The notes: a model not told the origin generated them from the sequence alone. Positions 32,656 through 43,308 are shown, counted from the first letter of the stretch. The stretch: 64,000 nucleotides of DNA from Verrucomicrobiales bacterium (GCA_005791875.1 SXTU01000174.1:9-64008), one strand, 5' to 3'. Translations and numbers: made by a program.

Positions 32656-32692
32656 TGGTGCCGGTGGCGGGACTCGAACCCACACGACGTTT
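32656..32692 (-). repeat. Displaced 3' end of tRNA-Leu (att direct repeat, distal copy)
   Basis: tggtgccggtggcgggactcgaacccacacgacgttt matches 43221-43257 at 35 of 37 positions. The 5' half of a tRNA does not follow it. Confidence 0.85.
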
Positions 32693-32770
32693 CGCACGCT
32701 TGGAGTTTGCAGAAACCTCATAAAAACCAACGTTTACAGGCATTGAAAACATGCTAGACATCAGCAACAC

Positions 32771-32790
32771 GTTATGCGATGACGTTATGC
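32771..32790 (+). promoter_or_regulatory. Candidate integrase arm-type sites (GTTATGC x2, 13-bp spacing), left end
   Basis: GTTATGCgatgacGTTATGC lies immediately before the integrase ATG (32792). The same pair, with the same spacing and orientation, lies at 43138-43157. Confidence 0.5.
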
Positions 32791-32791
32791 C

Positions 32792-34006
32792 ATGTCTAGC
32801 ATCCACCAACAACCGGGCAAGCCCTGCTATTTTTGCGCCTACTACGACCCCGAGGGCTACCGCCGTTTCCGCTCCACGGGCACCGGCAACCGCGCCGTCG
32901 CCGGCATCATTTGCACCGCCGTCGAGCGCGCATCCCAGCTCGCGCGTCAGGGCAAGCTGTCCGAGCAGAAGGCGCAAAGCCTCGTTCGGGAGACAAAGGC
33001 CACCGTTGCCGAGAATCCCAAACACGGGCCGCTGATGGCGGACATGGCGGACAAGACGCTCCGCCCCATCGTCGAGGAGTTCGTCAGGATGGCCGGCGGT
33101 GAGCTTACGAGCTTCACGGTGAAGCTCTGGCTCGAAACGTGGCTCGCGGGCAAGACGGACGCCAGCAAGGCCACCCGCATCGAATACAAGCGCATCGTGG
33201 ACCTGTTCGTGAAGTTCCTTGGGGCTCGAGCGGAGCGACCGCTGGCGACGGTGCAGGCGGTCCACGTCGAGCAGTTCAAGGCGCACCTGGCTGGCCGCGT
33301 GGGCGCTTCGACGATCAACAAGTCCTTGAAGGTCTTGAAGGGCGCGTTCGGCAGCGCCGTCGCCAAGCGGCAACTGGAGTTCAGCCCGGCGGAACACGTC
33401 GAGTTCAACGAGGCGGCGTCATCCCAGCGCCGTGCCTTCACGCTCGCGGAAATCAAGAAGCTGCTGGCGGTCGCGGAGAGCGACTGGCGCACGATGATTT
33501 TGCTGGCGCTATACAGCGGTCAGAGAATGCAGGATTGCGCGCGGCTGACGTGGCGCGAGGTGGACCTACTGCAAGGCACCATCAGCCTCGAAACGGAGAA
33601 GACCGGGCGCAAACAGGCGATTCCCATTGCCGAGCCGCTGGCAAAGCATCTGGCAACACTGGCCGGCGATGACCCCGACGCGCCGCTCTGCCCAAACTTT
33701 CGGGGGAAGCCATCGGGCAGGCTGTCGGCTAAATTCTACGATCTGATGGTCAAGGCCGGGCTGGTGCCGCCCCGCAATCACGAGAGCAAGGGCACCGGGC
33801 GCGACGGCGCGCGGGAGATGAGCAAGGTGAGCTTCCACAGCCTCAGGCACACCGCCACGAGCCTCTTGAAGTCCGCCGGGGTGAGCGACTCCGTGGCTAT
33901 GGACATCATCGGGCACGAGACGGCGGCGGTGTCCCGCAGCTACACGCACATCGCGGACGACGCCAAGCGCGCGGCGGTCAACAAACTGCCCGATGTCACC
34001 GGCTGA
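32792..34006 (+). CDS. Tyrosine recombinase / site-specific integrase
   Basis: 404 aa. LALYSGQRMQDCARLTW, SFHSLRHTATSLLKSAGV and IIGHETAAVSRSYTH form the R..HxxR..H..Y catalytic pattern. Confidence 0.9.
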   Translation: MSSIHQQPGKPCYFCAYYDPEGYRRFRSTGTGNRAVAGIICTAVERASQLARQGKLSEQKAQSLVRETKATVAENPKHGPLMADMADKTLRPIVEEFVRMAGGELTSFTVKLWLETWLAGKTDASKATRIEYKRIVDLFVKFLGARAERPLATVQAVHVEQFKAHLAGRVGASTINKSLKVLKGAFGSAVAKRQLEFSPAEHVEFNEAASSQRRAFTLAEIKKLLAVAESDWRTMILLALYSGQRMQDCARLTWREVDLLQGTISLETEKTGRKQAIPIAEPLAKHLATLAGDDPDAPLCPNFRGKPSGRLSAKFYDLMVKAGLVPPRNHESKGTGRDGAREMSKVSFHSLRHTATSLLKSAGVSDSVAMDIIGHETAAVSRSYTHIADDAKRAAVNKLPDVTG

Positions 34007-34334
34007 CGGATTGGCGGCCGGCGCGCTGCCCGAACTGCTCGGGGTGCCGACGCTCCAGAATCCAGCGATAGCCCGCGCTCCCGGTTCCGTCCGCTTGGAT
34101 GACTTTCAGCGCCTTGAACAGGAACTCCGCCTGCGCCTGCTCGATGACCAGCCTGAGCTGTGGGTTCCGCCGTTTGGCCGCGCGGAAAGACTCGTAGTTG
34201 ACCGGTGGAGTCATCAGGTGGCAGGCCGAGCGCTCCGGCATCCCTCGCGCCACGTGCTGCGCGATGGCCTCGACCACGGCCAGCGTGATCTGCGCCGGGC
34301 GTCCACCGCGCCGCTGCTTTCGTGGGGTGCTCAT
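33996..34334 (-). CDS. Small HTH DNA-binding protein (terminase-small-subunit/transposase-HTH-like)
   Basis: The ATG at 34334 gives MSTPRKQRRGGRPAQITLAVVEAIAQHVARGMPERSACHL... It is the last gene of the minus-strand rep operon. Its 3' end overlaps the integrase stop by about 10 nt. Confidence 0.5.
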   Translation of the reverse strand: MSTPRKQRRGGRPAQITLAVVEAIAQHVARGMPERSACHLMTPPVNYESFRAAKRRNPQLRLVIEQAQAEFLFKALKVIQADGTGSAGYRWILERRHPEQFGQRAGRQSVSR

Positions 34335-34346
34335 GGCTTCTCTTCT

Positions 34347-34372
34347 CGCGCGCACGCGCGCGCGTGCGCGCG
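34347..34372. repeat. 26-bp perfect palindrome of alternating purine-pyrimidine sequence
   Basis: cgcgcgcacgcgcgcgcgtgcgcgcg equals its own reverse complement. It lies 13 nt upstream of the HTH gene start and downstream of the DnaC-like stop. Confidence 0.85.
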
Positions 34373-34408
34373 TTGCTGGTGCAAACTGCGTGGCTGGGGC
34401 ATGGGGTT

Positions 34409-41482: not shown

Positions 41483-41554
41483 GGCGCAGCCGACGAACAG
41501 CAGACTAGAGGCGGCGACGGCTAGCCGATCTGGAATGTAGCGAGTAATTTTCAT
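41480..41554 (-). pseudogene. Truncated lipoprotein gene (signal peptide and lipobox only)
   Basis: MKITRYIPDRLAVAASSLLFVGC(AS), with lipobox LFVGC. Beyond about 41,480 the frame runs antisense through the RM fragment and is meaningless. Confidence 0.4.
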
Positions 41555-41588
41555 GGCTTGTTCCTATTCGTTGATCTTGACCGGACGG

Positions 41589-42461
41589 CTACTTCGTCGC
41601 CACTCTGATCTGAAGGGCAGTGATCACGTTTATCATCAGGTGAGGTTCGAGCGGCAAAGATCGCACATCTATGCCTCTGTGGTCTGAAAGCAGTTTTGCA
41701 TAGTCAGAGATAAGCAGTTTGATGTAATTGGCATCTCCAACAAGCGGGGCAAACCAGCCTTCTGGAACTAGTTTGTCAACGCCTGGTAGAAAGGCAACAT
41801 CCACTCCAAAAGTTTTTACAAACGCGGCCAAAGTTGAGAATTTTTGGATCTGTTTTCCGGAGTCGTCAAACCATACGAAATGTTCAGGCACTGTCAAAAG
41901 GTAGAATGTCCCGGTTTGCTGCCCTGGAAACAGTGCAACAGGGTCACCGACCAAATGGATGTTGGTAATGGATGCGATTTTCCAATTGAGTGTAGTCACT
42001 GAAGTTAACGCACCACTGCTGCCAACGGGCCTACTTTCTGTAAGCAGGTCATCATCCAAGCCCGCTGAATTGAAAACTATCGCTGATACCAATGGATTGG
42101 CGAGTTTTATGGTCGCATAGGATGCAAGTCCACCCCCGAGTGAATGGCCGGTCAGTATGATTTTGTATCCCAGACCGGGCTGGGTGAATCGCTCAACGAA
42201 AGGACGCGCAAGTTCTACGGCTTCCGGGTATTGTTTGGCTATCACCCCTTTCAGATAGGCGTTCGCGACATCAGTAAGCAGATCCTTTATCAATCTCCAT
42301 CCGTGTTCCGTTCCAGCAAATGCAATCACAAGAGGCTTGGTGTTTACATTGATGTAAACGTGTAAATGCAATCCTGATTTCTTCTCTTGTATGCTTTTGA
42401 GTCCTTTTAGACTAACCCCGTCAGGGCAATTGGATAAGTCCAGAGTTTCCCAGTTTCGCAC
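41589..42461 (-). CDS. Alpha/beta-hydrolase, class-3-lipase/DUF2974-like (GHSLGG serine nucleophile)
   Basis: PLVIAFAGTEH..KIILTGHSLGGGLASYA is the lipase_3-type nucleophile elbow. No signal peptide. The only start is the GTG at the cassette edge, so the gene may be 5'-truncated. G+C is far lower than in the flanks: one hand-counted 60-nt line gave about 43 % against about 62 % in the RM fragment. Confidence 0.7.
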   Translation of the reverse strand: MRNWETLDLSNCPDGVSLKGLKSIQEKKSGLHLHVYINVNTKPLVIAFAGTEHGWRLIKDLLTDVANAYLKGVIAKQYPEAVELARPFVERFTQPGLGYKIILTGHSLGGGLASYATIKLANPLVSAIVFNSAGLDDDLLTESRPVGSSGALTSVTTLNWKIASITNIHLVGDPVALFPGQQTGTFYLLTVPEHFVWFDDSGKQIQKFSTLAAFVKTFGVDVAFLPGVDKLVPEGWFAPLVGDANYIKLLISDYAKLLSDHRGIDVRSLPLEPHLMINVITALQIRVATK

Positions 42462-42479
42462 GGACTGAGAGTCGTCATA

Positions 42480-43087
42480 GGCTGGACGCCCACCGCAAGC
42501 GCGCCCAAGCCCAGCACGGCCTGACCTTGACCGGCCTTTACAACGTCCTCGAAAAACTCCGCGCCAACGAACCGCTCACGCCCAAGGAAAAGTTGGTTCA
42601 CGACGCGGGCCTCGTCTCCGTCCTCAAGCAGCTCCACGACGACCTCGACCGCGCCGTGGCGGACGCCTACGGCTGGCCTTGGCCGTTGAGCGACGAGGAA
42701 ATCCTGACGCGCCTCGTGGCCTTGAACGCCGAGCGCGCCGCCGAGGAAGCGCGCGGCCTCATCCGCTGGCTGCGCCCGGATTACCAGCTCCGCGCCGTCG
42801 CCGGAGCCAAGGAAGCCAGCCCCACCCTCGCTCTGACCGAAGGCACCGCGAAGCCCGGCAAGCAGCCCAAAGCCAAGCCCGCCAAACTCCCGTGGCCCAA
42901 AACCCTCGCCGCCCGCGCCCGCGCCGTGGAAACCGTCCTCCGCACCCTCGCCCAGCCCGCCACACCAGAGACGCTCGCCAAGCACTTCCTCCGCGCGAAA
43001 CCCGCCGACGTGCAGGAGATTCTCGAAACCCTCGTCGCCCTCGGCAAAGCCCGGGCGGGGAAGCGTGAAGGGACGTTCTCGGCGTAG
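42480..43087 (+). pseudogene. MmeI-family/type IIG RM enzyme, C-terminal fragment
   Basis: ..LDAHRKRAQAQHGLTLTGLYNVLEKLRANEPLTPKEKLVHDAGLVSVLKQLHDDLDRAVADAYGW..LIRWLRPDYQ is the conserved C-terminal tail of large type IIG methyltransferase-endonucleases as I recall it. It has no start codon of its own. Confidence 0.65.
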
Positions 43088-43137
43088 GCCAATGCTGGGT
43101 GCATCGAGCAAAACAGGCACCTTGGAGACATGCCTCA

Positions 43138-43157
43138 GTTATGCCACAGCGTTATGC
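43138..43157 (+). promoter_or_regulatory. Candidate integrase arm-type sites (GTTATGC x2, 13-bp spacing), right end
   Basis: GTTATGCcacagcGTTATGC lies 64 nt inside the tRNA-proximal att repeat. It mirrors 32771-32790. Confidence 0.5.
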
Positions 43158-43220
43158 CGATGGTGGCTAGCAGGGAGCCGGAGGCGCAAAAACAGCACAT
43201 TTGCTCAACGAAATGTGAAT

Positions 43221-43308
43221 TGGTGCCGGTGGCGGGGATCGAACCCACACGACGTTTTACCGTCTCGGGATTTTAAGTCCCGTGCGTCTGCCATTTCGCC
43301 ACACCGGC
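43221..43308 (-). tRNA. tRNA-Leu: tRNA-Leu (anticodon UAA), class II with a long variable arm, CCA encoded
   Basis: Minus strand reads GCCGGTGTGGCGAAATGGCAGACGCACGGGACTTAAAATCCCGAGACGGTAAAACGTCGTGTGGGTTCGATCCCCGCCACCGGCACCA. The acceptor is GCCGGTG/CACCGGC, the anticodon arm is CGGGA-CTTAAAA-TCCCG and the T-arm is GTGGG-TTCGATC-CCCGC. Confidence 0.9.

Follow-up and report, generated by a model that had tools for sequence, protein, structure and literature searches.

Paired heptamers at both ends of a tRNA-Leu island of Verrucomicrobiota, placed as arm sites of a lambda-type integrase would be

The arm-binding domains of the integrases of phage lambda and of Tn916 share a layout of three beta strands followed by an alpha helix. 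The mobile elements of Verrucomicrobiota are almost unstudied. Some of the marine satellites called VEIMEs were found in Verrucomicrobia (PMC9618062). Three subsites of tRNA genes are recognised as attachment sites, including the T loop and the junction of the T and acceptor stems (PMC4383910), and in KplE1 a promoter that overlaps the arm-type sites at attL causes negative autoregulation, something predicted for most integrase genes associated with tRNA genes (PMC2951348). The subject here is a 10.6-kb island, at 32656-43257 in a stretch of 64,000 nucleotides (the window) that is contig C118 of a metagenome-assembled genome (MAG) of 4.7 Mb and 314 contigs; the host is an uncultured bacterium, assigned to the Limisphaerales (Verrucomicrobiota) by the sources of its nearest homologues. 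I propose that the island is an integrative element inserted in the 3' half of tRNA-Leu(UAA) and that its integrase is of the lambda type, binding both a core within the tRNA gene and two pairs of short repeats, the P and P' arm sites, that flank it. I put the probability of this reading as a whole at about 0.85.

The window contains a single tRNA gene, an intact tRNA-Leu(UAA) on the minus strand (43221-43308, ARAGORN) with the T-loop TTCGATC. Its 3' 37 nt (43221-43257, minus strand), the core copy at attR, were recognised by a repeat search and appear with the same sequence in the independent contigs L148 and L149. The core copy at attL, 10,565 nt away in the same orientation (32656-32692, minus strand), is the end of the tRNA that the island displaced. 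The two copies are 95% identical. They differ by two mismatches, AC versus GA, at the 17th and 18th positions counted from the tRNA 3' end (nucleotides 59-60, in the T-loop), and it is the T-loop of the fragment, TTCGAGT, that has the form seen in the tRNA-Leu genes of all relatives. No further copy of the 37 nt exists in the window at up to three mismatches, and 100 shuffles produced none.

Between the tRNA gene and the displaced fragment sits an integrase gene (PF00589, 7e-19). The features by which Islander-type islands are recognised are thus all found: an intact target tRNA, a fragment in the same orientation, an integrase gene between them, and absence of the island from some relatives. 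The tRNA-Leu(UAA) genes of four genomes that lack this type of integrase (G012, G010, G019 and G015) are followed by unrelated DNA with no heptamer pair. A strictly syntenic empty site was not found in the relatives, because gene order near TerC and tRNA-Leu varies within the genus. The preliminary description of the window, made from its sequence alone, had called this a tRNA-Leu island with attachment sites at both ends. That description stands on all these points, and ARAGORN, the repeat search and the pair search return the same coordinates for the repeats and for the heptamer pairs.

The heptamer pairs lie just inside the core copies. On the left, GTTATGC-gatgac-GTTATGC (32771-32790, plus strand), the putative P' arm, is separated from the core by 78 nt and ends 1 nt short of the integrase ATG at 32792. 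On the right, GTTATGC-cacagc-GTTATGC (43138-43157, plus strand), the putative P arm, is 63 nt from the tRNA 3' end. GTTATGC-N6-GTTATGC occurs at exactly these two sites in the 64 kb, both on the plus strand. The shuffle control for the pair, with up to two mismatches allowed, gave 0.10, and no shuffle had two. Both sides of the core carry repeated heptamers that are unlike the core sequence itself, an arrangement that fits P and P' arm sites, and very probably the pairs are docking sites for the island's own integrase. A hairpin of CTAGACAT and ATGTCTAG around the left pair was considered as well and dropped; the left arm of that hairpin is better read as a -35-like box, TTGACA, which other family members share.

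If the pairs are arm sites, then related islands should have them too, and they do. In four genomes of the same genus, with integrases 75-85% identical to that of the window, each integrase gene has ACGTTATGCGATGACGTTATGCC at its start codon and is preceded, at a distance of about 100 nt, by a tRNA fragment; GTTATGC-N6-GTTATGC stands 63 nt from the tRNA 3' end. One of the four, G016, has its island of 7.8 kb whole on a single contig, in tRNA-Lys(ttt), with both pairs at the same distances. Three further complete islands, with integrases 61-63% identical, occupy two tRNA-Leu genes and a tRNA-Ser(gga), and these have one pair at the integrase and another 61-62 nt from the tRNA. For four islands, then, a single contig holds the whole element: those in tRNA-Lys, Leu, Leu and Ser, 7.6-10.9 kb long, each with a pair at either end. 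Taken together, 11 related islands, in tRNA-Leu, Lys, Ser and Glu, have a cognate pair 61-63 nt from the tRNA 3' end and a second that adjoins the integrase start codon. When the right arms of eight islands are aligned on the pair, the heptamers are essentially the sole invariant columns.

The integrase family extends much further, with more than 1,200 homologues in public data, and a wider scan took in 61 loci. Of 49 family loci, 40 have, no more than 50 nt upstream of the integrase start, a direct repeat that is perfect over 7 nt or more and has a period of 12-13 nt; among random 51-nt windows from the same loci the share is 2.4%. The preliminary description had counted the absence of the pairs from homologous islands among the outcomes that would tell against arm sites. 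Cognate pairs are present there, the distance from pair to tRNA end stays at 61-63 nt across four tRNA targets, and the heptamer word changes in concert at the two ends of an island.

The integrase itself (32792-34006, plus strand; PF00589 and PF02899) is a tyrosine recombinase of 404 residues, laid out as an N-terminal beta-beta-beta-alpha unit (residues 3-52), a SAM-like core-binding domain and a catalytic domain. R245, K270, H349, R352, H375 and Y384, the catalytic residues, are invariant in 38 sequences that include the window's. An AlphaFold2 model of the whole protein (predicted local distance difference test, pLDDT, 83.5) places strands at 3-6, 13-18 and 24-28 and a helix at 34-52, ahead of the SAM-like and catalytic domains. 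Residues 3-52 are modelled there at a pLDDT of about 90, and the same domain modelled in isolation reaches 89. Foldseek matches the whole model best to full-length lambda Int (1z1b_A, E 9e-10). By its layout the N-terminal domain is likened, as a working analogy, to the arm-binding domains of lambda and Tn916, and it is predicted to bind the heptamers. It matches DUF6538 weakly (E 0.007, 2 of 27 members).

A protein and the DNA word it recognises should change together, and this is the pattern seen across the family. The repeat word differs from one subfamily to the next: GTTATGC, GTTATAC, GTTACCC, GTTAGAC, GTTGTCA, ATTGTCA, ATTCTTA, GTTGGCA and GTTAACA, among others. Both copies within a pair always change together, and where both ends of an island were recovered the word is changed at both. 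Even an irregular case, the mixed pair GTTATGC...GTTATCC of G011, is mixed at both ends. Residues of the N-terminal domain follow the word. H16 and K26 are found only with GTTACCC, N19 and T28 only with GTTATAC, and an N-terminus of the type FACF...RVQRSTK goes with GTTGTCA. The residues that track the word sit in strands 2 and 3 of the domain. Such a pattern is what one would expect of a recognition pair of protein and DNA, the lineages being related and their counts accordingly not independent.

The same holds at a greater distance. Three members with integrases only 35-36% identical are found at tRNA-Glu(ttc). ATTGTCA-N5-ATTGTCA has just two sites in G041, a genome of 6.5 Mb, and just two in G042, and GTTGTCA-N5-GTTGTCA has just two in G043. 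In each case one pair is at the integrase gene and the other, 59-73 kb off on the same strand, is 62-63 nt from the tRNA-Glu 3' end. These long islands may be prophages or conjugative elements; they are at G041:C1:4051617-4110899 (Opitutaceae), G042:C5:775-74226 (Verrucomicrobiales) and G043:C22:321181-386878 (an assembly labelled Akkermansia sp.).

An alternative view is that the pairs are operators or promoter elements of the integrase gene, with no role in recombination. There is something to be said for it. Most members at about 60% identity have a TTGACA box some 10 nt upstream of the first heptamer, and a TAnCGT that spans the spacer and the second heptamer. In most of the family the left pair is caught between a conserved TTGACA and the start codon. 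In one relative, L072, a consensus scan calls TTGACA-18-TATCGT, a sigma-70-like promoter overlapping the pair and ending 9 nt before the ATG. In L072 and the members at about 60% identity, then, the arm pair overlaps the probable promoter of a nearly leaderless integrase gene. In the window the corresponding boxes are degenerate (TAGACA and TGACGT). But the operator view is at a loss to explain the equivalent pair at the far end of each island, which stands 61-63 nt from the tRNA with no gene beginning there and whose word co-varies with that of the pair beside the integrase. Nor need one choose, for the roles of promoter and arm site are compatible, as shown for KplE1 IntS (PMC2951348). That the pairs serve transcription and nothing else is very unlikely.

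A second alternative is that the pairs are bound by some other protein of the island, either an AlpA-like factor or, with the pairs acting as iterons, the replication initiator. Directionality factors and initiators do bind short direct repeats, and the gene for the AlpA-like protein is kept in 7 of 14 islands. But an AlpA-like homologue was not seen in the other half of the islands examined, within the sequence available, and the module of initiator and loader is missing from most islands that have the pairs. The repeat word, moreover, tracks substitutions in the N-terminal domain of the integrase, and in lambda the sites of the directionality factor are confined to one arm, which counts further against this view. 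I consider it improbable, by a shade less so than a purely transcriptional role.

The lambda-type reading leads to the following model. The element would have entered the 3' half of tRNA-Leu(UAA) by site-specific recombination, using its own two-site tyrosine integrase. The attachment site of its circular form would be about 220 bp long: the GTTATGC pair of the P arm, 63 nt, a tRNA-like core of about 30-37 nt, 78 nt, the GTTATGC pair of the P' arm and the start of the integrase gene. In the recombination complex the core, formed by the T-arm of the tRNA, would be bound by the catalytic and SAM-like domains, while the small N-terminal beta-sheet domain would attach to the heptamer pairs and so link the arms to the core. 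The AlpA-like protein of the island probably gives excision its directionality. Since the P' pair abuts the start of the integrase gene, integrase bound there should repress its own synthesis.

Several results weigh against this model. Foldseek finds no significant match in the PDB for the isolated N-terminal domain, comparison of the domain with Pfam finds no arm-binding family, and a profile search of the PDB finds no match. A consensus scan detects no sigma-70-like promoter at the window's pair. The island ends of three of the four close relatives are on separate MAG contigs, so that their pairing is presumed, and the related islands share ancestry, so that counting them overstates the number of independent observations. 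Finally, the circular form did not come to light. The exact attP pattern (a pair, 165-195 nt, a pair) has eight matches in metagenome contigs, all of them unrelated tandem repeats rich in GTTATGC, and no match in viral contigs, and the predicted attP and attB junctions match, in the genome's own assembly, only the two integrated halves.

Where in the core would strands be exchanged? In every island the core copies are the same over a block of 30-41 nt, which starts at the tRNA 3' end and extends a little past the 5' strand of the T-stem. Past the block, the sequence on the island side of attL is GACGTTTT or GAGTTTTT in every island, including those in tRNA-Lys and tRNA-Ser. The motif looks like tRNA-Leu sequence retained in attP, and its constancy beyond the block places the exchange within the T-arm. 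The 7-nt T-loop is the likelier overlap region. If it is the overlap, then the two mismatches of the window fall inside it, and the difference between attL and attR would be the trace of an integration between overlaps that were not identical, a difference that would now hinder excision. The seven other islands in which both core copies could be read have no mismatch in the T-loop. An exchange at the junction of the T and acceptor stems would instead leave the mismatches without effect.

Matching sequence, at 99.9-100% identity, is found on contigs of six other assemblies made from related samples (two ENA, three Logan and two GenBank metagenome records). Between them these contigs take in the attL junction, both junctions of an inversion described below, a lipase cassette, the right pair and the tRNA with its unusual T-loop, which rules out an artefact of any single assembly. 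Probably the six assemblies and the window sample one population, and all the independent contigs show the integrated form. In one assembly, GCA_005801925.1, one contig ends exactly at 32692 and another starts at 32552 (L155 and L145; an overlap of 141 nt, window 32552-32692). This overlap suggests a branch of the assembly graph at the inner edge of the repeat, and such a branch would fit an empty-site variant in the population, which is only a hint.

The preliminary description judged the recombination hardware functional in appearance. Excision of the window's copy may be impaired, because the core mismatches lie in the T-loop, the likely region of strand exchange. One may go further and hold that the architecture is genuine but the copy a fossil, fixed in place, excision having been lost through the T-loop mismatches, a degenerate promoter and a broken replication module. 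The mismatches at nucleotides 59-60, where seven other islands have none, speak for this, as do the failure of the consensus scan to find a sigma-70-like promoter in the window, the documented inversion and the integrated form in all six independent assemblies. Yet the integrase frame and its catalytic residues are intact and both heptamer pairs are perfect; the crossover could be at the junction of T and acceptor stems, outside the mismatches, as one of the three subsites (PMC4383910); and the contig that ends exactly at 32692 hints at an alternative path. I give the fossil slightly less than an even chance. Probably the copy is partly decayed, by the inversion that broke the replication initiator and an MmeI-like gene and by the differences in the T-loop of the core, which may fall where strands are exchanged.

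The island is not alone at this tRNA. Outside it, a second and divergent tyrosine integrase gene (31289-32629, minus strand; PF00589 5e-7, phrog_1 1.5e-22) starts 27 nt to the left of the tRNA fragment and has no cargo left. It is best read as the remnant of an older island. In G003 a homologue of this second integrase is directly beside the intact tRNA-Leu, and in G008 and G005 the same leader precedes the fragment, an arrangement that makes the window's island the newer member of a tandem array, the one proximal to the tRNA. Elsewhere in the window's genome, 80 nt (G000:C94:1800-1879) match the second integrase's leader together with the tRNA fragment at 78% identity and may belong to one more element of this kind. 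A gene for a PSCyt1/PSCyt2 (DUF1549) protein (28171-30804, plus strand), with no match to the PSD1 (DUF1553) domain, stands where the array ends on the left. Lone copies of the 5' half of tRNA-Leu(UAA), 38-49 nt long and 92-100% identical, are found in many genomes of the genus and order (for example G003:C38:3670-3717, G005:C20:7783-7824 and G019:C76:5968-6008), in G003 one of them 750 nt from the intact gene. Such copies suggest another type of element that targets the 5' half.

Within the island, beyond the integrase, a protein of 119 residues resembling the helix-turn-helix small subunit of terminase (33996-34355, minus strand; phrog_4102 2.5e-9) is 92% identical to its counterpart in the G016 island. 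Its gene lies between the integrase and the replication module, and capsid genes were not detected among the open reading frames (ORFs) scanned. The replication module consists of a DnaC/IstB-like helicase loader (34409-35284, minus strand; PF01695 8.7e-8, phrog_50 4e-28) and a lambda-O-like initiator in two pieces. The C-terminal part (35115-35650, minus strand) matches the C-terminal two thirds of the intact 271-residue protein of G016, which itself matches phrog_678 at 6e-16. The N-terminal HTH_36 part (40264-40537, plus strand; PF13730 8.7e-4) is 91% identical to the N-terminus of the G016 protein. The halves are 4.9 kb apart and on opposite strands. The replication and terminase module is common only to the window's island, G008 and G016.

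An inversion accounts for the split. The segment 35651-40537, 4.9 kb long, ends in GGAGCCGCAG (35651-35660) and CTGCGGCTCC (40528-40537), an inverted repeat of 10 nt. Flipping it in silico reopens the 271-codon frame of the initiator and, on the other side, the frame of an MmeI-like gene through its nuclease, spacer and methyltransferase parts; the gene order of the G016 island agrees. The inversion is real rather than a misassembly, because both junctions recur in independent assemblies. Of the MmeI-like gene there are now the N-terminal nuclease and helicase-spacer part (35651-36949, minus strand; PF20464 1.7e-21, PF20465 3.5e-17) and the methyltransferase part (40538-41482, plus strand; PF20473 1.2e-25), truncated at about 41482. 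An ORF of 186 residues with high third-position G+C and no family match (42527-43087, plus strand) may be the remnant of its C-terminus. Two ENA assemblies have an insert of 4,506 bp (L142:14191-18696 and L148:3825-8330) that corresponds to window 36980-36981, 32 nt upstream of the MmeI-like start, with ORFs matching T1R_D3-like and T1RH-like_C. The insert is missing from the window, from a Logan contig and from a GenBank metagenome contig, and is for that reason a polymorphism within the population.

The inverted segment also contains a Phd/YefM-like antitoxin (37947-38204, plus strand; PF02604 4.7e-4), a PIN/VapC toxin (38201-38653, plus strand; PF01850 5.6e-10), a protein of 344 residues (38650-39684, plus strand) without family match and 65% identical to one in the G016 island, and the AlpA-like candidate excisionase (39743-40210, plus strand; PF05930 weakly, E 0.03-0.07). 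The family assignment of the last is weak: profile searches gave PF05930, weakly, in one member only, and nothing meaningful in the PDB. It is nonetheless the best candidate for an excisionase because it recurs in differently loaded islands, the only one besides the integrase to do so among the eight island proteins compared. Where the flank of the integrase is long enough, its homologues are found 0.8-2.4 kb beyond the integrase gene. Near the right end, a low-G+C cassette (48%, by composition profile) contains a class-3-lipase-like alpha/beta hydrolase (41589-42461, minus strand; PF01764 1.3e-6). Two plus-strand ORFs (35930-37324 and 37312-37911) taken for 'rep' and 'DnaC' were rejected as shadow frames of the minus-strand MmeI gene; the real genes are at 34409-35650 (minus) and 40264-40537 (plus). 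The preliminary list of cargo was right, namely an integrase, an excisionase-like gene (on a weak match), a rep gene with a DnaC-like loader, Phd/VapC, a gene of no known family, an MmeI-like gene and a lipase cassette, and it was right too that replication and restriction-modification genes are disrupted, both having been split by the one inversion.

For this locus the outcome is mostly confirmatory, with strong support from related islands for the proposed role of the pairs. The element is an ordinary kind of tRNA island, probably half-decayed, and its integrase family is large and undescribed. The most useful outcome is the family-wide layout of attachment sites together with the co-varying repeat words. 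It gives a precise arrangement for one integrase family of Verrucomicrobiota, two plus two heptamers at fixed distances from a tRNA T-arm core, and with it the ends of islands can be located exactly even where a metagenome-assembled genome is fragmented. Integrase variants matched to their repeat words form a natural series that could serve for studying, or re-targeting, the recognition of arm sites. I also offer a broader conjecture, one that I hold more doubtful than probable: that across Verrucomicrobiota each lineage of this family has re-tuned its N-terminal beta-sheet domain and its four arm heptamers jointly while hopping between the T-arms of tRNA-Leu, Lys, Ser and Glu, and that the members of about 8-11 kb with terminase-small-subunit-like and lambda O/P-like genes may be phage satellites of Verrucomicrobiota. 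If this is so, then residues and words, changing together, could be read as a recognition code, and the arm-binding fold that uses it would be unlike any family so far described.

How does the island compare with elements better known? Like the tRNA islands and tandem arrays catalogued by Islander (PMC4383910), it has a regenerated tRNA and a displaced 3' fragment, an internal integrase and a subsite in the region of the T-stem. As in those arrays each island has an integrase of its own, the only fragment found here being that at 32656-32692. Unlike those islands, the host is an uncultured Limisphaerales bacterium. With the PICI-like and VEIME satellites (PMC9618062) it shares a size of about 8-11 kb, an integrase, an AlpA-like gene, an initiator with a loader, a homologue of the terminase small subunit, and cargo of restriction-modification and toxin-antitoxin genes. 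No structural or capsid protein was found among 28 candidate ORFs compared with Pfam and eight compared with PHROGs, and the gene set resembles that of a capsid-less phage satellite. Unlike the satellites, its replication module is common to just two close relatives and is broken in the window, and the family members of 59-73 kb are clearly something else.

Two further comparisons are with the integrases of KplE1 and lambda. As with IntS and TorI of KplE1 at argW, the start of the integrase gene adjoins attL, with arm-type sites in the interval that separates its start codon from the tRNA fragment (PMC2951348). In contrast to KplE1, the integrase is beside the displaced fragment and not the intact tRNA, and a promoter overlapping the pair was found in the relative L072 only. 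The departures from lambda, with its sites P1, P2 and P'1-3, are two plus two sites at a fixed period of 12-13 bp, a core in a tRNA T-arm, and an N-terminal domain without detectable similarity, in sequence or by Foldseek, to the arm-binding domains of lambda or Tn916. Common to the island and lambda are an integrase of three domains whose best structural match is full-length lambda Int, short direct repeats on both sides of the core within a predicted attP of about 220 bp, and a gene for a small accessory protein.

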